Shown: one piece after another, positions 2,146 through 61,032 of the stretch
Position numbering within the stretch: position 1 is the first letter of the stretch
Layout: each line of letters starts with the position of its first letter
NCBI GenBank assembly: GCA_040753155.1
Contig: JBFMEU010000002.1
Span: forward strand, 5,633 to 69,632
DNA length: 64,000 nucleotides
Source: Bacillota bacterium
GTDB lineage: Bacteria; Bacillota; Desulfotomaculia; Desulfotomaculales; JBFMEU01
Direction: 5' to 3'
Notes under the pieces: model-generated
Told to the model about the DNA's origin: nothing
The model's input: only the letters and a program-made list of their open reading frames with translations
Database searches by the model: none
Program-made: the position numbers and the translations under genes

Positions 2146-2244
2146 TAATCAAAAAGCCTCCATTTTCCTAAGGGAGAAGGAGGTTTTCTTTTGTTTGCCC
2201 CGGCAGGAACTTTTGCCCTGTGGGGCGAAATATAATAGAATTAC

Positions 2245-2300
2245 TTGGAAGTATATTCTCGGGGCATTCTGACTCCTGACTCCTGAATTCTGAATACCTA
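2245..2300 (+). repeat. H element fragment H3 (3' terminus only)
   Basis: ttggaagtatattctcggggcattctgactcctgactcctgaattctgaatacc equals the 3' end of the H consensus. Confidence 0.8.
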
Positions 2301-2323
2301 CAATTTTTAAGGAGGAGTGCTGA

Positions 2324-2680
2324 TTGAGTTTGCATCCCCAGGCGCTGCTGAAGATTGCCGTGGATGTTGCCGGGGAGAAAAAGGCCCTGGATATAACTGT
2401 GCTGGATATCAGAAAGTTAACTGTGGTGGCGGACTACTTTGTGATTTGCACCGGGCGGTCGTCCATTCACACCAGAGCCATTGCCGACGAAATTGAGCAA
2501 AGGCTGACCGGGGAAGGGCAGCCGGCGCCAAGAAAGGAAGGTTTCCGGGAAGGCAACTGGATACTAATGGATTGCGGTGATGTTGTCATTCATATTTTCC
2601 AGGAAGAAGAACGTATCTTTTATAACCTGGAACGCCTGTGGGGGGATGCTCCGGTGGTTGCTGTACCGGCGACTGTCTAA
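2324..2680 (+). CDS. rsfS: Ribosome silencing factor RsfS
   Basis: LDITVLDIRKLTVVADYFVICTGRSSIHTRAIADEI...DVVIHIFQEEERIFYNLERLW; SD aaggagg before the TTG start. Confidence 0.9.
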   Translation: MSLHPQALLKIAVDVAGEKKALDITVLDIRKLTVVADYFVICTGRSSIHTRAIADEIEQRLTGEGQPAPRKEGFREGNWILMDCGDVVIHIFQEEERIFYNLERLWGDAPVVAVPATV

Positions 2681-2718
2681 GTTTACCATAATCCGGAGTT
2701 GTTGGCCTGTTGAGGTTA

Positions 2719-2852
2719 TTGAACGAGACTTAATTCAGAGGGGGATTCAACCCCCTCTGAATGTTAGCCGAGTCCATACTGGACTTAACCGCCCTTTGAA
2801 ACCCGCCGCCTACAGAGGCGGGGGTCTTAGGGCGGTTAAGTCCAGTGATAAA
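2719..2852 (-). mobile_element. A element copy A1 (two-hairpin ~135-nt element)
   Basis: ttgaacgagactt-ATTCAGAGGGGGattcaaCCCCCTCTGAAT-...-GGACTTAACCGCCC...GGGCGGTTAAGTCC-agtGATAAA. Confidence 0.8.
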
Positions 2853-2870
2853 GCACCGTGTTTGTCAACT

Positions 2871-2949
2871 GGGGTGGCGCCGCTGAAAATTAACCCTCAG
2901 TCCCTAACCGGGAGGGAGGTCTGCCGGCCCGTAACCACCCCTTTTTTTA
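2871..2949 (+). terminator. Stem (GGGGTGG...CCACCCC) followed by T7; probable rsfS terminator
   Basis: ggggtgg at 2871 pairs with ccacccc at 2935, followed by ttttttt. Confidence 0.45.
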
Positions 2950-3146
2950 GATCCGGGCTAAAGTAGCCGGCGCCGGTTCTTCCGGCGCCTTCTCCTTGTG
3001 CTTTTAGTAAAGTAACCGGCCATATGGCCCGGACCGAGGAAAAAAGTATTAAGCCGCGCGCGGTTTTTTGGCCTGCAGTTGTAGAAACAGGGTAATTATG
3101 ATAAAATTTTAAGGTTTTAAAGGTTATTTACTGGGAGGCTTTAAAA

Positions 3147-5630
3147 GTGAAAGACCGTTACGATTTTAAAGATCTTGAGGTCAAGTGGCAGCGCCGCTGG
3201 CATGAAGACAAGCTCTACGAGGCGCCTGATTTTTCCGGCCGGCCCAAGTACTACTGCCTGGAGATGTTTCCTTACCCCTCGGGCAAGCTGCACATGGGTC
3301 ATGTCCGGAATTACTCCATCGGGGATGTGGTGGCCCGGTTTAAAACCATGCAGGGGTTTCACGTGCTGCACCCCATGGGCTGGGACGCCTTCGGGCTGCC
3401 CGCTGAAAACGCCGCCATCAAGCACGGAAACATGCACCCGGCCCAGTGGACCATAGACAATATCAACACCATGCGCGATCAGCTCAAGCAGCTGGGGATT
3501 AGCTATGACTGGAGCCGGGAGGTGGCCACCTGCCACCCGGGCTACTACAAGTGGACCCAGTGGCTGTTCCTGCAGCTGTACCGCCGCGGCCTGGCCTATA
3601 AAAAGAAGGCGGCCGTGAACTGGTGCCCCTCCTGCGCCACGGTGCTGGCCAACGAGCAGGTAAAGGAGGGTATTTGCGAGCGCTGTAAGACTGATGTGGA
3701 GAAGAAAGAGCTGGAGCAGTGGTTCTTTAAGATCACCGACTACGCCGGGCGTCTGCTGGAGGATTTGGAAACCCTGCCGGGCTGGCCGGAAAAGGTCAAG
3801 ATCATGCAGGAACACTGGATTGGCCGCAGCGAGGGGGCGGAAATCAAATTCACCATTGACGGCCATGACGATGAGTTCATGGTCTTCACCACCCGGCCGG
3901 ACACGGTGTTCGGGGTCACCTATATGGTGCTGGCCCCAGAGCACCCCCTGGTGGAAAAGCTCATTGCGGGCAAGGAGCAGGCCGGTCAGGTGCGGGACTT
4001 TGTAAATAGAGTGCGCAACCTGAGCGAGATTGCCCGGACCTCCGTTGATGCGGAAAAGGAGGGCATCCTCACCGGCGCTTACTGTATTAACCCCCTGAAC
4101 GGCGAAAAAATTCCCATCCTGGTGGCCAACTACGTGCTGCTGGAGTACGGCACCGGCATGGTCATGGGCGTGCCGGCCCACGACCAGAGGGACTTTGAAT
4201 TTGCCCGGAAGTACAAGCTGCCCGTCCGGGTGGTCATCCAGCCCGAGGGTGTGGAACTGGACCCGGAAACCATGACCGGGGCCTGCGACGGCGAGGGGGT
4301 TATGGTTAATTCCGGCCAGTTTAATGGCGTCCCCAGCCAGGAGGGGATCCGCAAGGTTACGGAATACCTGGAGCAAAACAATCTGGGCCGGGGCCTGATC
4401 AACTACCGCCTGCGGGACTGGCTGATTTCCCGGCAGCGTTACTGGGGCGCCCCCATTCCCATTATTTACTGTGATCAGTGCGGCGCCGTACCGGTTCCCG
4501 ATGCCGACCTGCCGGTAATGCTGCCCCTGGAGGTGGCCTTTGAGCCCACCGGCCGCTCGCCCCTGAATGACAGCCCGGAATTTGTCAGCGCCGCCTGCCC
4601 CGGCTGCGGCGGGCCCGGCAGGCGGGAAACCGACACCATGGACACCTTCATGTGCTCCTCCTGGTACTACTACCGCTACACCAGCCCCCGGAACGAGGAG
4701 GCTGCCTGGGGCGGGGAGCAGGTAAAATACTGGCTGCCCGTGGACCAGTACATCGGCGGGGTGGAGCACGCCATCCTGCACCTGCTGTACAGCCGCTTCT
4801 TTACTAAGTTTCTTTATGACGCGGGCCTGATAGACAACCAGGAGCCCTTTACCAACCTGCTCACCCAGGGCATGGTGCTCAAAGACGGGGCCAAGATGAG
4901 CAAGTCCAAGGGCAATGTGGTCAGTCCCGAAGACATCGTGGGCCGCTACGGGGCCGACACCGCCCGGCTGTTCATCCTGTTCGCCGCCCCGCCGGAGCGG
5001 GACCTGGAGTGGAGCGATCAGGGCGTGGAGGGGTGCTACCGTTTCCTGAACCGGGTCTGGCGCCTGGTCCAGCCCCTGGCGGCAACCCTGCAGAGTAGCA
5101 GCGGCAAACCCAACGCCAACCTGGTGGGGGTAAACCGGGAAATGCGCCGGCTGACCCACCTGACCATCAAGAAAGTCACCGGGGACATTGGCAACCGGTT
5201 TAACTTCAACACCGCCGTCAGCGCCATCATGGAGCTGGTCAACGGCCTGTACCAGTACCGGGAGGTGCCGGAAACCGACCGGGACCCGGCGGTTCTCAAG
5301 GAGGCGGTGGAGTCCATGCTGCTCCTGCTGGCCCCCTTCGCCCCCCACGTGACCGAGGAACTGTGGGAGGTCACCGGCGGCGCCGGCAGCATTCACCTCC
5401 GGCCCTGGCCCGGGTTTGACCCGGCGGCCATGGCGGAGGACGAGGTGACCATAGTGGTGCAGATTAACGGCCGGGTCCGGGACCGGGTGCTGGCGCCCGC
5501 CGGCATACCGGCCGAAGAGATGAAGGAGCAGGTCATGGCCCAGCCCAGGGTTCAGGAACTGATTGCCGGCAAGCAGCTGGTCAAGGTCATCCCGGTGCCC
5601 GGGAAGCTGGTTAATATAGTGATTAAGTAA
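3147..5630 (+). CDS. leuS: Leucine--tRNA ligase
   Basis: 827 aa; HMGH ([10 protein letters not shown]) and KMSKS motifs; SD gggagg before GTG. Confidence 0.97.
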
Positions 5631-5819
5631 GAGGAGGCCCCTGCGCATGACGCAGGGGCCTCTAAGGGTATACAGCCGTATGAATGAGCTTTAACTCATG
5701 TTGACAAAACAATTATCTGAATACGGTTTTAAGTTCAACACCCAGCCTGCCTGCCAAATCACTGATTTCCTTGAAGTCGCCGGCAGGCACAAAGATTAGC
5801 GGGCAGGAGTCCTGGATTT

Positions 5820-6041
5820 TTATTTCTGCAGCAGCAGCAGGATATCCTCGCCCTGCTCAGTAACCTCGATCCGCCAGCCCTTGTTTTCGGCCAGCCGGGA
5901 CACGTTTTCCCTGGCCGCCGTGTGGCTGACCAGCACCTTGATGGCGCCGCTGTCCATGGTGTCCATAACCCGCTTGGTCAACAGTACAGGCTCCGGGCAT
6001 AACAGGCCCCGGGCGTCAACTTCCCTTGCCAATGCTCGCAC
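5820..6041 (-). CDS. yedF: TusA/SirA-like sulfurtransferase (short YedF-like partner of YedE)
   Basis: VDARGLLCPEPVLLTK carries the CPxP motif. It overlaps the end of yedE by 26 nt. Confidence 0.7.
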   Translation of the reverse strand: MRALAREVDARGLLCPEPVLLTKRVMDTMDSGAIKVLVSHTAARENVSRLAENKGWRIEVTEQGEDILLLLQK

Positions 6042-7095
6042 CCCCCGTCACGGCCGCCGGCCTGTTCAAGATGCCGATTACGGCCACAGCAAGCATGCCC
6101 AGGATAACCGCCACCTGGCCGGCCACCGGCACACCGGCGGGGCTGGCCGCCAGGCCGAAGTTGTGGGCCACGGCGGCCCCGGCCATGATGCCCATAATGG
6201 TCACGGCGCAGTCGGTGTTCCCCTCCCCGGCGGCCACCAGCTGCCGCAGCGGGCACCCGCCCAGGAGCACAGCGGCCCAGCCGGCCAGGGTCATGCCCAA
6301 AAAGTTCCACAGGCCGTCGGTGTGGGCCACCGGCTGCCCCTCAAACCCGATTTTAAAGGCGCCCACCGCCAGGTTGCCGATCAGGGCCACAATGAAGATG
6401 GCCACAAAGCCGTATAACAGGTGGCCGTCCCGGAAAAAGATGTAGTCCCTGATGCCGCCCACCATGCACAGCCGGGAGCGCTGGGCCATTATACCCACAA
6501 TCAGGCCAGCCCCCAGGGCGATCCAGATGGGCGCCGCCATGGAGCCGGGGCCCTGCTCACTGAAGAAGATGAAGGCCGGCTGGGCCAGCAGCAGAATTAA
6601 CAGGACCACCATCAGGCCGGTAAAAAGGTAGCCGTTGCCCCGCTGCTGGGGTACGGCCCGGCCCAGGGTGAACCCGTTTTTGAGAAACTGTACGCCGATG
6701 AGTACCCCTGCCACCAGGCCGATCAGGCCGACCCCGGCGTTAAGGTCGCCCCCCGCCAGGCGCAGGACGGCCCGCACCGGGCAGCCCAGGAAAACCAGCA
6801 TGCCGATCATGGCAATGAAGCCCAGGATGAACCGGGTGAAGGCGCTGGAGCCCCCCACGGACCTGAATTCTTTGGTGGCCAGGGAGGTAAAAAAGGCCCC
6901 CAGCACCAGTCCGATAATCTCGGGTCTTATGTACTGCACCGGGACCGCCCGTTGGAAGCCCAGGCCGCCGGTAATGTCCCGCAAAAAACAGGCTATGCAG
7001 TAGCCCATGTTGGCGGGGTTGCCCAGCAGCACCAGGATGACCGCCATCAGTCCCAGGGTCCCCCCGGCAGCAAGAATCAATAACCGCTTACTCAA
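6016..7095 (-). CDS. yedE: YeeE/YedE family membrane protein (selenium/thiosulfate-related transporter)
   Basis: GNPANMGYCIACFLRDITGGLGF and a second LCMVGGIRD half-repeat; polytopic. I place the start at TTG 7095 (SD gaggggg). The ORF track extends to 7176, across the tRNA. Confidence 0.8.
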   Translation of the reverse strand: MSKRLLILAAGGTLGLMAVILVLLGNPANMGYCIACFLRDITGGLGFQRAVPVQYIRPEIIGLVLGAFFTSLATKEFRSVGGSSAFTRFILGFIAMIGMLVFLGCPVRAVLRLAGGDLNAGVGLIGLVAGVLIGVQFLKNGFTLGRAVPQQRGNGYLFTGLMVVLLILLLAQPAFIFFSEQGPGSMAAPIWIALGAGLIVGIMAQRSRLCMVGGIRDYIFFRDGHLLYGFVAIFIVALIGNLAVGAFKIGFEGQPVAHTDGLWNFLGMTLAGWAAVLLGGCPLRQLVAAGEGNTDCAVTIMGIMAGAAVAHNFGLAASPAGVPVAGQVAVILGMLAVAVIGILNRPAAVTGGASIGKGS

Positions 7096-7120
7096 AAAAT
7101 AATACCCCCTCGAAATGATA

Positions 7121-7217
7121 TGGAGGGGAGAAGTCGGAGTCGAACCGGACTCCCGCCTGGATCGCAGACAGGCCAACGGGTTTGCAGCCCGCGGGGGCCA
7201 CCGGACCCTTTCTCCCC
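7121..7217 (-). tRNA. tRNASec-like tRNA with cysteine identity (anticodon GCA, discriminator U73, 8-bp acceptor stem, long extra arm)
   Basis: Minus-strand sequence: GGGGAGAAAGGGTCCGGTGGCCCCCGCGGGCTGCAAACCCGTTGGCCTGTCTGCGATCCAGGCGGGAGTCCGGTTCGACTCCGACTTCTCCCCTCCA. Acceptor GGGGAGAA/TTCTCCCC. Anticodon loop CTGCAAA. Extra arm GCCTG/CAGGC. T loop GGTTCGACTCC. CCA is encoded. Confidence 0.8.
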
Positions 7218-7361
7218 GCTATATCTATTCGCGGGGTAAAATAAATATCCTTTATGAAAATGATTTGATTTATTTATGCCGAAGGGTAAAGCTAGAAGAG
7301 TTTTTAATAAGCCCATAATTAGTTAATTCGAGGGAGCAAATTTAATGGTTGAACTCCCAAC

Positions 7362-8276
7362 TTAACGGTAGTGTCTGGACAGTTCGGAGGCGTAAGTGGC
7401 TCCAAGGCTGTCCTTGTTACTTTTCAGCCAACTACTCAGGCGGGTTTGGCCTGTGGGCTCAGCACCAGAAACCAGCAAGTTGGCCATTAACCCTTCCACT
7501 TCATCACGGGTCAGTACCACGTCATTGACCAACAGTCCAACTAGACTGGACATGTATAGGGCCAGGTCAGGATTTAGATGAACAATTCCAGCCCGGCTGC
7601 GAACCACTTCCCTGATTAGCCGGACCAGTTCATTAAAAGTGAAAACTTCCGGACCGACTGCGTCAATAGCTATGTTTTCCGCTTCCCCGGCCGTCCTAAC
7701 GGCCAAATCAGCCATGTCTTCCACAAAAACCGGCTGCAGCCGGTAATCCCCCTTGCCGGGAACGGCAAACAGGGGAAACCTTCGTAAGAGCCAGGCAATA
7801 TTGTTAATCAAGATGTCTTCAGGACCAAAGATTACCGTGGGCCGGAGGATGGCATAGGATAGTGAGGACCTGGCAATTGCCTCTTCCAGCAGGCCCTTCC
7901 CTTTAAAATAGGGCAGTGGTGAGGCAGGGGAGGCATTTGCTATGCTGATGTGCACGATTCTTTGCAGGCCGGCCTCTTCCGCCGCCCTGATTAGAGCCAG
8001 AGTGTTTTTTACCGCCTGGTCATAGTTGGTTTGAGCATAGGGAAAGCGAACCCAATAGGTGTTGAAAAGGGTTGTTGCTCCCTGCATGCTTTTTGCCAGC
8101 TCTCCGGGACGATCAAACTTATAAGGAACTGCAGTTACCCGCTGGCCGAAGGGGTTGGGCTTACCCGGGCGTCCGGTAAGGGTGAGAACATCCTTCCCCC
8201 TGGCCAGCAGGTGGCGTGTAATGTATTTACCGGTATAACCAAAGGCTCCGGTAACAACATTTAATTCACCTGGCAT
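7362..8276 (-). CDS. NAD(P)H-binding SDR-family (NmrA/NDUFA9-like) protein
   Basis: N-terminal Rossmann motif VVTGAFGYTGKYITRHLL; 304 aa. Confidence 0.7.
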   Translation of the reverse strand: MPGELNVVTGAFGYTGKYITRHLLARGKDVLTLTGRPGKPNPFGQRVTAVPYKFDRPGELAKSMQGATTLFNTYWVRFPYAQTNYDQAVKNTLALIRAAEEAGLQRIVHISIANASPASPLPYFKGKGLLEEAIARSSLSYAILRPTVIFGPEDILINNIAWLLRRFPLFAVPGKGDYRLQPVFVEDMADLAVRTAGEAENIAIDAVGPEVFTFNELVRLIREVVRSRAGIVHLNPDLALYMSSLVGLLVNDVVLTRDEVEGLMANLLVSGAEPTGQTRLSSWLKSNKDSLGATYASELSRHYR

Positions 8277-26495: not shown

Positions 26496-27238
26496 GCGGG
26501 CCGGTGGCTGAAATAAAGGAGGTCTCCTTTAGCTTCGGAACCCGGCCGGTGCTGGAAAACGTCAGCCTGAAGATCGAGGCGGGGGACTTCTTGCTGCTCA
26601 TCGGACCCAACGGATCCGGCAAAACCACCCTGCTAAAAATAATGCTGGGCCTGATAAAGCCCTGGCAGGGGCGGGTGTGCCTGTTTGGCCGGGAGCTGGG
26701 TTCATTCCGGGACTGGTACCGGGTGGGCTATGTTTCCCAAAAGGCCACTGGGTTTGACGCCCGTTTTCCCGCCACGGCGGAAGAAGTGGTTCTGGCGGGG
26801 CGCATTGCCAGGTCCGGCCTGGGCCGCCGCCTGGGGGCCGGGGACCGGGAGGCCGCCCTGGAGGCCCTGCGGGTGGTGGGTATGGAAGACTGCCGAAACG
26901 CCCTGATTGGAAATCTGTCCGGCGGGCAGCAGCAACGGGTGTTCATTGCCCGGGCATTGGCCGGGAACCCCGAACTGCTGGTGCTGGATGAGCCTTCCGC
27001 CGGCCTGGACAGCCGGGCCATGGATTCTTTTTATGCCATGCTGGGCAAACTTAACCAGGCAGGTATTACCGTGGTTACCGTCTCCCACGATATTGGCGCG
27101 GTACCCGGCGAGGTTAACCGGGTGGCCTGCGTAAACCGCCGCCTGGTCTGCCACGGCTCTCCGGCCAGAGTTTTAACGCCGGAGAATCTGGCCAGCCTTT
27201 ACGGCATGCCGGTAAGTGTTATCTCACACCGCCATTAG
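26492..27238 (+). CDS. znuC: Zinc ABC transporter ATP-binding protein
   Basis: Walker A GPNGSGKTT, signature LSGGQQQR, Walker B LLVLDEP. Confidence 0.9.
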   Translation: MSGPVAEIKEVSFSFGTRPVLENVSLKIEAGDFLLLIGPNGSGKTTLLKIMLGLIKPWQGRVCLFGRELGSFRDWYRVGYVSQKATGFDARFPATAEEVVLAGRIARSGLGRRLGAGDREAALEALRVVGMEDCRNALIGNLSGGQQQRVFIARALAGNPELLVLDEPSAGLDSRAMDSFYAMLGKLNQAGITVVTVSHDIGAVPGEVNRVACVNRRLVCHGSPARVLTPENLASLYGMPVSVISHRH

Positions 27239-59900: not shown

Positions 59901-61032
59901 GGCGGATAAAAAGGCCCTTTCCGCCGGGGTCTGGGCGCGCGTGGTCATGGCCGCGGGAGAGGAATTCCCCAGGCAGGTGGACCTTGCCGAAACCCTGACC
60001 GGGGAAAGGGAAACTCTGGCCGGGTACGACCCCGGGGCCAAAACAATCATCACCGCCGGCGGCGGGGAATACTCTGTGGGCAAGCTGGCTGTCATCACCA
60101 GGGCCGGCTATCCCATCTTGCCGGAAGATTTGCTGCCGGGGGAGGCGGTGAGTATCTCCAGCATCCTGGGGCCGCAGCCCGCCAGCCGGGCGGTTACCGG
60201 GCTGACGGCCCGGGAAAACGGCGGGCCCCGGCCGGCCCTGACCGTTTCCGCGCTCTGGCAGGAAAACAGCTGCTGGATTACCGGGCATACCACGGGGGCC
60301 AGGCTCTACCTGTGGGAGGGCAGCCGCCTGGCTAAAAAAGTGAGCCTGGCCCCCGACGGCCGCTTCGCCCTGGAATACCGGCCGGACGGCAGCGGAGCTC
60401 CCGTTGCCCTGGTGGCGGCGGGCGACAGCGGCTCCGTGGCCGGGGTTAACCTGGAACTCAGGGGCATGACCAGCGGCCCTGAACTAAGGGACATAGGCGC
60501 CCACTGGGCCGGGCCGGACTTGCGGGCCATGGCCCAAGAAGGCCTGGTGGCAGGCTTTCCCGGCGGCGTCTTCCGGCCCGGACAGCCGGTGACCAGGGCC
60601 GAGTTCACGGTTTTCCTGGCCCGGGCCTTTGGCTGGTACGGGGCGGCTGCAGACGAACCAAAGTTTAAGGATGAAGGGCAAATCCCTGCCTGGGCCGGGC
60701 AATCCATAGCCGGGGCCTCGGCCAGGGGCATCGTGGCCGGCTACCCCGACGGCAGTTTCAGGCCGGGGGCGCCCCTAACCAGGGAGGAACAGTGCGTCAT
60801 CCTGGACAGGGTGAGCCGGGAGTTCAACCTGGACACCGGAGAACAGGGGCCGGCGCCCTTTGCCGACCGGGCCGCCATCGCCCCCTGGGCACTGGCCGGG
60901 GCGGACAGCGCCTATCACCTGGGGATTATGGTGGGCAAGGACGGGAACCTGTTCAGGCCGGACAGCCGGTCAACCAGGGCTGAAACTGCTGTGGCCGTCT
61001 ACCGCCTCCTCAACCTGGTCCGCCGGCAGTGA
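56914..61032 (+). CDS. Large secreted S8 (subtilisin-family) peptidase with C-terminal SLH cell-wall anchoring repeats
   Basis: Catalytic-triad contexts GLADSGLD, HGTHMAATLVG and GTSMSSAVLGG. The C-terminus has 3 SLH-like repeats (HWAGPDLRAMAQEGLVAGFPGGVFRPGQPVTRAEF ...). 1372 aa. Confidence 0.85.
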   Translation: MKGLTLRKPGIVIAAALLAVLVFLWAGQTNSSDKNPAGGQPRGSEALGPASPAGARLYTVTLKRQPAGKELNDLAARGSWLGTLAEDRVLVQGDEAFRSYLTGRPFVQEVAEYTAEQKLQDISPEKDSPARAGQPPVKVILTVVSPGDRGRVAEEVLRLGGKVIDGAGGEGNALLAEVPRGRLTELAESPWIIYLEEHIQPLLLNDRVRDLTGSRPLAVPGFVTSAGLTGKGQSIGLADSGLDRGTLDNIHPDLRDNPGGSPKVIMLKSWVGADTPADTVGHGTHMAATLVGSGAASGGKFAGLAPDASLFFQGIVDQRGQVLPPVNIADLFRPAHAIGARIHVNGWGRPGNRYGTVSAQVDGFIRDNPGFVAIFGAGNDGPQSGSLTLEANSKNALVAGSSPVPGPAFNGGAPDLAAPVEFSSRGPAGDGRIKPDLLAPGDAVISAASGLLEGNLPDLPQYTMLQGTSMSSAVLGGAAAQLRQYLAESKSLAAPSAALVKALLINGARAGSEGPGRDGFGVLDLGGTVLSLEGRSMTFEDHKSGLQTGRAATWKYEVGSSDEPLKATLAWTDPAALPGAGKALVNDLDLKVTAPDGSIYFGNHFLNGGGPDTVNNVEQVFIAHPAPGEYTITVTAKTVTRNASAAGGPAQDFALAFGQPVSGVAAAGKDTSRNTVQLEDGREISLAGRPVKTVIDNRAGRPGLADIHPGSRVYLTSQGSAYFVSRQWQARGVKARQTTGGLLFTGAGAAGAGGGHLAAPGAGRNIRINGVPYPEAGPFPPGGEIAAWVDPLTQNIWQASVSYEVAEGFVAEYKDQAVKLINDSKWRELAPDAAIIFEDTPVHTDPADAAFAPGIPGEFNSLVPGVEVKLVAGPGSGPVQAIILAREVVFNQVERVEGSRIFVSGGKELRLFPGAAIKKDFQEAAWADILPGDHIAGILLPDTGSIIALWAYTDIVYGNISYYSAGDDHLYLNTPGGAPRIIKLGPETKIRRWGAEADKKALSAGVWARVVMAAGEEFPRQVDLAETLTGERETLAGYDPGAKTIITAGGGEYSVGKLAVITRAGYPILPEDLLPGEAVSISSILGPQPASRAVTGLTARENGGPRPALTVSALWQENSCWITGHTTGARLYLWEGSRLAKKVSLAPDGRFALEYRPDGSGAPVALVAAGDSGSVAGVNLELRGMTSGPELRDIGAHWAGPDLRAMAQEGLVAGFPGGVFRPGQPVTRAEFTVFLARAFGWYGAAADEPKFKDEGQIPAWAGQSIAGASARGIVAGYPDGSFRPGAPLTREEQCVILDRVSREFNLDTGEQGPAPFADRAAIAPWALAGADSAYHLGIMVGKDGNLFRPDSRSTRAETAVAVYRLLNLVRRQ

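Follow-up and report, generated by a model that had tools for sequence, protein, structure and literature searches.

Bacterial tRNAs that carry cysteine identity on the body of a selenocysteine tRNA (tRNASec) were described as selC* tRNACys in Clostridia, Bacilli, Thermodesulfobacteria, Thermodesulfovibrio and delta-proteobacteria (Mukai et al. 2017, PMC5389517). Their discriminator base is U (U73) and their anticodon GCA or UCA; the acceptor and anticodon stems are longer, the variable arm is long and the T stem sometimes has one bulged nucleotide, and U73 and GCA are the main identity elements for cysteinyl-tRNA synthetase (CysRS) (PMC5389517). A selC* tRNACys was considered an 'additional cysteine tRNA', with a complete selenocysteine (Sec) apparatus found in all selC*-containing genomes, and the main text of the same paper describes selB* and cysS* beside selC* tRNACys in delta-proteobacteria (PMC5389517). 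According to a 2024 review (PMC11415595, citing Vargas-Rodriguez et al. 2018), the tRNA of Desulfotomaculum nigrificans is charged by CysRS, is carried by SelB, delivers cysteine (Cys) at UGA codons marked by a selenocysteine insertion sequence (SECIS) and is reported not to interact with EF-Tu. A 2026 paper, which calls the division of labour between tRNASec and tRNAReC unclear, gives tRNAReC the working definition of a tRNA of at least 80 nt with a UCA or GCA anticodon and discriminator U, and tRNASec that of a long tRNA with a UCA anticodon and discriminator G or A (PMC13582414). A gene of the tRNAReC (selC*-type tRNACys) kind, located directly upstream of the putative selenium transporter gene yedE, was examined here in a 64 kb stretch of an uncultured Bacillota metagenome-assembled genome (MAG) (GenBank accession number JBFMEU010000002.1; coordinates 5633 to 69632), referred to below as the window. 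As the tRNA class is already published and one homologue has been characterised, the window gene is a further instance, and the novelty claimed for it in a first-pass annotation of the sequence was overstated.

The gene (window positions 7217 to 7121, minus strand; GGGGAGAAAGGGUCCGGUGGCCCCCGCGGGCUGCAAACCCGUUGGCCUGUCUGCGAUCCAGGCGGGAGUCCGGUUCGACUCCGACUUCUCCCCUCCA) is 97 nt long including an encoded CCA, with coordinates checked on the sequence. ARAGORN identified it as tRNA-Cys(GCA), the sole tRNA call in the 64 kb window, and the only Rfam match in the window was also at this position, to the tRNA-Sec model RF01852 (51.1 bits against a gathering score of 47; E 2.3e-07). The first-pass annotation had proposed a 97-nt minus-strand tRNA with tRNASec shape and Cys identity (GCA with U73) and had named ARAGORN and covariance models as checks. 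Both confirm the gene, and the combination of shape and identity matches the selC* tRNACys of Mukai et al. 2017 (PMC5389517). Its statement that such tRNAs occur in Clostridia, including Desulfotomaculum, was essentially correct by the main text of that paper and the review cited above (PMC5389517; PMC11415595).

Species-representative genomes were scanned with the pattern GGCTGCAAACC-N18-48-GGTTCRANTCC, which returned at least 119 loci. Among the matches listed, 15 loci had the same tRNA build as that in the window, and these were from Desulfotomaculum copahuensis, Desulfoscipio geothermicus, Desulfofundulus, Desulfovirgula, Ammonifex, Peptococcaceae, Syntrophomonadaceae and Bacillota MAGs, with the closest sequence relatives found in Desulfotomaculum-group genomes. 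The Rfam tRNA-Sec gathering score was exceeded by most homologues. The structure was tested on an alignment of 16 sequences over 33 pairs, using the extended anticodon stem given by RNAalifold. For the whole structure, 96.9% of cells were paired compared with at most 60.6% when the 3' partners were slid, and double-sided changes were found in 17 pairs compared with 5.7 +/- 1.7 in shuffles. As both controls were far below the observed values, chance is excluded as the source of the structure.

The 8-bp acceptor stem (pairs 1–8/86–93), formed by the 5' strand GGGGAGAA (7210–7217) and the 3' strand UUCUCCCC (7125–7132), was paired in 100% of cells in the 16 sequences with compensatory changes in five of the eight pairs, bearing out the stem length read earlier from the single sequence. 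A 7-bp acceptor register used by ARAGORN, which is two bases off, includes a C-C mismatch and was rejected. A single nucleotide, A9 (7209), links the acceptor stem to the D arm (7195–7208), which in the alignment has a 5-bp stem, GGGUC/GGCCC, and the tetraloop CGGU. The T arm (7133–7150; GU(C)CGG-UUCGACU-CCGAC), supported by the alignment and Rfam, has five pairs, a bulged C (7148) and the T loop GGUUCGACUCC. This makes the acceptor/T helix 8 + 5 (8/4 plus a bulge as Mukai et al. write it); at locus L083 the bulge is absent and the five pairs are kept. The discriminator U73 (7124) and the encoded CCA (7123–7121) close the gene, and U73-CCA is kept in 15 of the 16 sequences. The D arm, T loop, U73 and CCA were all as the first-pass annotation had given them.

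Two of its arms stood only in part. The anticodon GCA (7185–7183) and the loop CUGCAAA were correct, but the stem of the anticodon arm (7173–7194) is 7 bp with a bulged U (7176) and not 5 bp. It includes the pairs C24-G45, C25-G44 and G26-U43, and pair 26-43 varies as AU, GU or GC, whereas a 5-bp stem with pair 26-42 left 6 of the 16 sequences unpaired there and was replaced by the bulged stem of RNAalifold. The extra arm (7152–7172) is long, as stated, but its stem is an 8-bp helix, CCUGUCUG/CAGGCGGG, around the 5-nt loop CGAUC. This stem was 91% paired in the 16 sequences and has five covarying pairs, whereas the 5-bp register GCCUG/CAGGC originally proposed was merely 72% paired across the homologues and was rejected. 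At locus L137 (3832–3927) the loop reads CUACAAA, giving the anticodon ACA in place of GCA with the rest intact, which may be natural variation or a sequencing error. The minimum free energy fold of the single window sequence is not a cloverleaf (-47.7 kcal/mol compared with -42.5 kcal/mol for the cloverleaf; z -1.66). It contains the acceptor stem and the extra-arm hairpin but misfolds the D/anticodon domain, and covariation was preferred to it as a guide. Support for the structure, drawn from aligned sequences, is thus comparative, not thermodynamic.

These features place the gene in the published class. At 97 nt it exceeds the 80-nt minimum for tRNAReC, and it has a long extra arm with a covarying stem, the anticodon GCA, discriminator U and an 8-bp acceptor in a branch of the expected kind (8/4 with a bulge or 8/5). 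Its mean column identity to the tRNAs of D. copahuensis, Desulfoscipio geothermicus, Desulfofundulus, Desulfovirgula and Ammonifex is 88%, in a comparison that did not include the D. nigrificans reference sequence. The UCA anticodon and G or A discriminator of tRNASec (PMC13582414) are replaced by GCA and U73. As all of the sequence-level features of tRNAReC are present and those defining tRNASec are not, the gene is an additional member of the published class, predicted from its sequence to be a functional tRNAReC gene encoding a cysteine-accepting tRNA on a bacterial selenocysteine-tRNA body. It shares with selC* tRNACys the tRNASec-like body, 8-bp acceptor, long extra arm, extended anticodon stem, single bulged T-stem nucleotide, GCA with U73, occurrence in anaerobic Clostridia/Bacillota and near-threshold tRNA-Sec match, and no structural difference was found between them.

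A long extra arm, as is present here, is the main determinant for seryl-tRNA synthetase (SerRS), and the window tRNA scores above the Rfam tRNA-Sec threshold, as would a true tRNASec with a sense anticodon. SerRS would charge such a tRNA with serine and SelA would convert the product, so that Sec would be inserted at UGC/UGU, as is reported for the tRNASec(GCA) of Aeromonas salmonicida; tRNASec species with a GCA anticodon do exist (PMC11415595). Compared with bacterial tRNASec (RF01852), the window tRNA shares the 8-bp acceptor, the 13-bp acceptor/T helix (8 + 5 pairs, here with a bulge), the long extra arm, the 4-nt D loop and a presumed role as SelB client. However, it has U73 and not G73, GCA and not UCA, one linker nucleotide and not two, a 5-bp D stem and not one of 6 bp (the sixth position is an A-C mismatch) and a 7-bp bulged anticodon stem, and by analogy it is expected to carry Cys directly and not Ser converted to Sec. 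U73 is retained in all but one of the aligned sequences, long U73 tRNAs with GCA or UCA count as tRNAReC under one published working definition (PMC13582414), U73 with GCA is the main CysRS identity (PMC5389517), and the D. nigrificans homologue is reported in the review to insert Cys (PMC11415595), making a true tRNASec very unlikely.

An ordinary, EF-Tu-dependent tRNACys isoacceptor of odd shape that reads UGC/UGU in general translation would account for the ARAGORN call and for the lack of a second tRNACys in the 64 kb window, and the ACA anticodon of L137 would read UGU. However, the 8-bp acceptor and the 13-bp acceptor/T helix are what separate SelB from EF-Tu binding in bacteria (PMC7609411), the review reports that the homologue does not bind EF-Tu (PMC11415595), and selC* tRNAs are additional to the normal set and accompanied by a complete Sec apparatus (PMC5389517). 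This explanation is considered as improbable as the previous one.

Slighter still is the chance that the element is a decaying pseudogene, or that it acts in cis as a tRNA-like leader of the yedE mRNA, where it would be a sensor or guide processing or stability. Its place in the immediate 5' region of yedE would fit, as would the single-sequence fold, which is not significantly stable, and at locus L055 (5680–5770, minus strand) U73-CCA is replaced by A73 and TTA and part of the T stem is disrupted, so that this copy is possibly a decaying pseudogene. However, the same RNA is found away from yedE, beside tRNA-Gln, tRNA-Lys or unrelated genes, and compensatory changes have kept all five helices, with the anticodon loop, the T loop, U73 and CCA likewise preserved.

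The allo-tRNAs or (8/4) tRNAs (Mukai et al. 2017) resemble the window tRNA in their non-canonical acceptor/T geometry, long extra arm and recovery by tRNA-Sec searches. However, their branch measures 12 bp (8/4 or 9/3) and their identity is mostly that of serine tRNAs, whereas in the window tRNA 8 + 5 pairs and a bulge go with Cys identity. The genome scan also recovered GCA-anticodon tRNAs of allo-tRNA-like shape from Acidobacteriota, Planctomycetota and Coriobacteriia. Those of Acidobacteriota and Planctomycetota (L005, L010, L016, L022, L025, L039 and others) are long-arm GCA tRNAs of a GGCCGGU...-type, most without encoded CCA and with varying discriminators.

In the window, the tRNA gene is followed on the same strand by yedE (6016–7095), which encodes a putative selenium transporter of 359 aa from a TTG start at 7095. 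The protein matches TIGR04112 with 502.2 bits (cut-off 200), residues 7–342 aligning to model positions 2–337, and the same 359 aa were obtained in independent gene calls on three metagenome contigs encoding an identical protein. The distance of 25 nt between CCA and the TTG start (7120–7096) given in the first-pass annotation was exact, and this spacer (UAUCAUUUCGAGGGGGUAUUAUUUU) holds the Shine-Dalgarno sequence GAGGGGG (7111–7105) as its sole signal. The alternative that the tRNA region is coding failed, as the open reading frame (ORF) cannot pass 7176 and the alignment to TIGR04112 already begins at residue 7 and model position 2. The mechanical ORF extending to 7176 is therefore an artefact, given this alignment and the 359-aa gene calls from 7095. 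The accompanying warning that annotation may extend yedE across the tRNA was borne out by two 395-aa members of the 90% YedE cluster (P0009 and P0012), which start inside the tRNA gene and whose first ~36 residues are translated tRNA (PTGCKPAG...GVRFDSDFSPP).

A TusA-domain gene (5820–6041, minus strand; PF01206, 65 bits) overlaps the end of yedE and resembles a short YedF. Alternative gene calls give 70 aa with a start at 6032, hence a length of 70–73 aa. The label 'yedF' used earlier was too strong, as the protein has the TusA domain alone, whereas YedF combines a TusA-like with a DsrE-like domain or is the short form of E. coli, and it misses the YedF cut-offs (TIGR03527/PRK11018; 57.4 bits compared with 110, and 22.1 compared with 79), and from its sequence it appears best named a TusA-like partner of YedE.

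Among the matches listed in the genome scan, yedE was found ~25–35 nt after the tRNA in 4 of 14 evaluable loci of the same type: L028 (Ammonifex), L035, L049 (Peptococcaceae BICA1-7) and L059. The yedE-linked loci, the Ammonifex and BICA1-7 ones among them, lie on contigs of MAGs or metagenomes. Metagenomes were also scanned using the window YedE, which identified 52 loci, 48 with enough upstream sequence to judge, and a covariance model built from the 16 tRNAs was used to find tRNA genes upstream of these yedE genes. The tRNA was located just upstream of yedE on the same strand in 15 of the 48, with scores of 87–113 bits. Weak custom-model matches in the window at 26688–26776 and 60929–61015 (15–17 bits; E 0.3–0.8) were dismissed as noise. 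A rough neighbour-joining tree of YedE groups the tRNA-linked genes in a single Bacillota clade. Of its 23 members, 19 have the tRNA, and those without it are L126–L128, which are nested within the clade, and L164. On this tree the layout is ancestral to the clade, and most members have kept it. In most linked loci the tRNA-yedE spacer is 24–36 nt and contains an A/U-rich stretch and a Shine-Dalgarno sequence alone. No terminator-like site was found between the tRNA and yedE in the window.

Some loci depart from this layout. The spacer of L136 (3887–4000) is unusually long at 114 nt and includes an inverted repeat, CAGGGGTACCTAT...ATAGGATACCCCTG, that might be an attenuator or a processing signal. 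An Ammonifex-like metagenome contig, L152, carries two near-identical tRNAReC-type copies 1.4 kb apart (2388–2482 and 3863–3956), the second directly before yedE. A tRNA-Gln gene lies 6 nt after the tRNAReC-type gene in L075 (1555–1733), with an ORF nearby (~2400–3940) that from its sequence is serine-recombinase-like, and in L114 (5657–5850) a tRNA-Lys gene follows after 26 nt. L075 and L114 thus show that in some genomes the tRNAReC-type gene belongs to a small tRNA cluster or has mobile DNA nearby.

Upstream of the window tRNA, a dyad of the form ATAAA-N5-TTTAT (ATAAAGGATATTTAT; 7241–7255, minus strand) ends 23 nt before tRNA position 1 and, from motif comparison, is a candidate operator or promoter element. 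No other perfect ATAAA-N5-TTTAT occurs in the 64 kb window, and allowing one mismatch gave five matches where 1.4 were expected. With up to one mismatch, the dyad was present in 20 of 27 distinct tRNA upstream regions, compared with a mean of 1.7 and a maximum of 6 in composition-matched shuffles, which preserve base composition only. In 390 kb of related loci there are 30 perfect copies, most just upstream of the tRNA or yedE, and the dyad accompanies the tRNA both with and without yedE behind it, for example in L075, L114 and L119. Conversely, in L126 and L127 the tRNA is absent, yet ATAAAGGATGTTTAT is kept ~60 nt before yedE. In L131, L134 and L130 the dyad overlaps a good -35/-10 pair, consisting of the right arm TTTATA, a 17-nt spacer and TATTAT ending 5–6 nt before the tRNA, and in several loci a second, distal copy of the dyad is found ~22 nt upstream. 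The position of the window tRNA directly upstream of yedE-tusA and the shared dyad are not described in the main texts of the published selC* accounts. Neither yedE next to this tRNA class nor a shared upstream dyad for it was found in the literature searched, a scope without the supplements of Mukai et al. 2017 and without Vargas-Rodriguez et al. 2018.

As the layout recurs in 19 of 23 clade members, the spacer holds a ribosome-binding site alone and the dyad precedes both the tRNA and yedE genes that lack it, co-transcription and shared regulation of the tRNA and yedE are likely on these comparisons. Co-transcription had been raised as a possibility in the first-pass annotation; the clade-wide layout, the spacer and the dyad strengthen it, and from these we still infer it. 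However, the two genes could be mere neighbours, with the tRNA having its own promoter and 3' end, yedE and the TusA-like gene being transcribed from a separate promoter overlapping the T arm, and the arrangement having no regulatory meaning. The sequence TATCAT (7120–7115), directly after CCA, is a weak -10-like hexamer, A/T-rich hexamers of this kind (AATCAT, GATTAT, GAATAT) follow CCA in several yedE-linked loci, and the tRNA type occurs without yedE in other genomes. However, if transcription began 7 nt after TATCAT, hardly any leader would precede the Shine-Dalgarno sequence, the -35, a weak match here, fits still less well in most homologues (TCGATT), there is no terminator after the tRNA, and the dyad before tRNA-less yedE genes in L126 and L127 places the yedE promoter upstream of the tRNA site. 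Together with the retention of the layout in most of the clade, this makes the absence of any regulatory connection unlikely.

On balance, a tRNAReC gene that is co-transcribed with yedE-tusA and co-induced with selenium uptake is probably the best explanation as a whole. The tRNA would be the first gene of a tRNA-yedE-tusA/yedF unit transcribed from one dyad-bearing promoter upstream of it, and once RNase P and 3' processing had cut the tRNA out, an mRNA with a short leader and a ribosome-binding site would remain. By analogy with its characterised homologue, the tRNA would be charged by CysRS via U73 and GCA, the long acceptor helix would keep it off EF-Tu and hand it to SelB, and SelB would bring Cys-tRNA to UGA with a downstream SECIS hairpin, so that Cys would be inserted in place of Sec despite the G34-A mispair. 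Selenium uptake or trafficking would thereby be induced in step with the Cys-for-Sec fallback, most plausibly under selenium scarcity. Shortage is the likeliest trigger because in Methanococcus maripaludis yedE mRNA rises 5.3 log2-fold on selenium starvation (PMC11097638) and, in Methanococcus, the LysR-type regulator HrsM controls Cys isoenzymes (summarised in PMC5322559).

A number of observations weigh against this explanation. Among the matches listed, yedE was not adjacent, and the neighbours were unrelated, in 10 of the 14 evaluable loci of the same type, and as a consequence linkage of the tRNA and yedE is not obligatory. The window includes a weak promoter-like site matching at 9 of 12 positions (TCGACT-17-TATCAT; 7143–7115, minus strand), made up of the T loop and the first bases after CCA, from which yedE might be transcribed alone. 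No consensus promoter was found upstream of the window tRNA, the -35/-10 sequences there being poor, and part of the motif enrichment could reflect shared ancestry as the dyad loci are related. No regulator gene was consistently adjacent to the tRNA-yedE loci, and the direction of regulation, scarcity or excess, is borrowed from an archaeon. Finally, no selA, selB, selC, selD, cysS or recognisable selenoprotein gene was found in the 64 kb window, where YedE (TIGR04112) is the sole selenium-trait marker.

A selenium-associated LysR-type protein is the leading candidate for a regulator, a circumstantial lead suggested by the fit of the dyad to the LysR T-N11-A rule, the two-site layout in several loci and the LysR_Sec_metab genes (NF040786) adjoining the tRNA in L119 (923–1834, minus strand; 258 bits) and L018 (295 bits). 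LysR homologues are also divergent from yedE in L161 and L168, two loci without the tRNA, and no LysR gene was found in the 64 kb window. A MarR-like gene two genes upstream in the window was considered as the regulator and rejected, as it is not conserved at other loci. The proximal half-site ATAAAGGAWT presumably resembles part of the Bacillus CymR box, a likeness not relied on here. The more specific proposal that tRNAReC and YedE/TusA form one selenium-responsive unit in the Bacillota clade, with ATAAA-N5-TTTAT as an operator possibly bound by LysR and the choice between Sec and Cys at UGA made at the level of transcription, is put forward tentatively, as a possibility that may well prove wrong.

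Two known systems offer partial parallels. The logic proposed here is that of Methanococcus, where the selenium supply sets whether the Sec or the Cys version of an enzyme is used. However, Methanococcus switches whole isogenes (PMC5322559), whereas the window system would act on the decoding tRNA, and the putative LysR link here comes from the motif fit and the LysR_Sec_metab genes beside the tRNA in L119 and L018. In Alphaproteobacteria, selC is nested in selB, an arrangement for which the abstract of the report points to risk from excess SelB (PMC8124441) and which a later review reads as balancing SelB and tRNASec (PMC13188914). Both cases couple a Sec-pathway tRNA physically to a protein gene of the same pathway; the window tRNA, however, precedes the coding region and is not inside it, and its partner is a putative selenium transporter and not an elongation factor.

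The remainder of the window is unrelated to selenium metabolism in its recognisable content. A NAD-binding epimerase-like gene and the MarR-like gene lie upstream of the tRNA, and leuS converges from the far side. A 13-bp GC-rich hairpin with 10 G-C pairs (5634–5662), between the convergent leuS (plus strand) and TusA-like (minus strand) genes, is probably the end of the transcription unit, shared by both. The window otherwise contains housekeeping genes (nadD, rsfS, leuS, hisG, prfA, prmC, tsaC, glyA, atp genes, murA, spoIID and mreB).

Long-arm GCA tRNAs were also found in other selenium gene clusters. Clustering of the neighbours of 103 loci with such a tRNA among the matches listed recovered the published linkage to selB* in 27, and placed YedE in 8 and HdrA-like proteins in 8. 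Beside long-arm GCA tRNAs, ~10 loci each from several phyla have a double-cubane-cluster anaerobic reductase (NF040772, 495 bits) and an activase of the acyl-CoA dehydratase type (TIGR00241); the loci are L012, L017, L046, L051, L054, L057, L067, L094, L098 and L110, and also L125, divergent there from tRNA-yedE. In a Coriobacteriia MAG (L061; accession number DASSAH010000006.1, ~2200–8000), the gene order is selA (TIGR00474, 612 bits), selB (TIGR00475, 378 bits), tRNA, yedE and a TusA/YedF-like gene. This tRNA has GCA, U73, CCA and an 8/4-type scaffold, and a Cys-identity tRNA thus fills the slot after selA-selB and beside yedE. In Bacterium UASB14 (L110; accession number DF820459.1), the tRNA (GCA, U73; 7661–7757, minus strand) is followed by genes for a long-form YedF (TIGR03527, 206 bits), SelD and the double-cubane reductase. 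As its alignment begins only at model position 17, the SelD ORF probably starts behind an in-frame UGA (Sec). From L061, L110 and the neighbour clustering, Cys-identity Sec-shaped tRNAs are therefore present in selenium gene clusters of several phyla, on differing scaffolds.

The published oddity of this tRNA class is a programmed codon-anticodon mispair that lets cysteine replace selenocysteine, and the window tRNA is a further example. For annotation, gene callers sometimes run yedE through the tRNA and produce false 395-aa proteins, and in genomes with this tRNA predicted Sec UGA codons may be read as Cys. The dyad-tRNA-yedE layout provides a testable handle on when bacteria choose Cys over Sec at UGA, a handle that rests on the clade-wide order of dyad, tRNA and yedE, on the dyad with the tRNA where yedE is not its neighbour, and on the dyad with yedE in two tRNA-less relatives. 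If the proposal is true, tRNAReC would gain its first known regulatory logic, the transcriptional dosing of a competing SelB client alongside the transporter.

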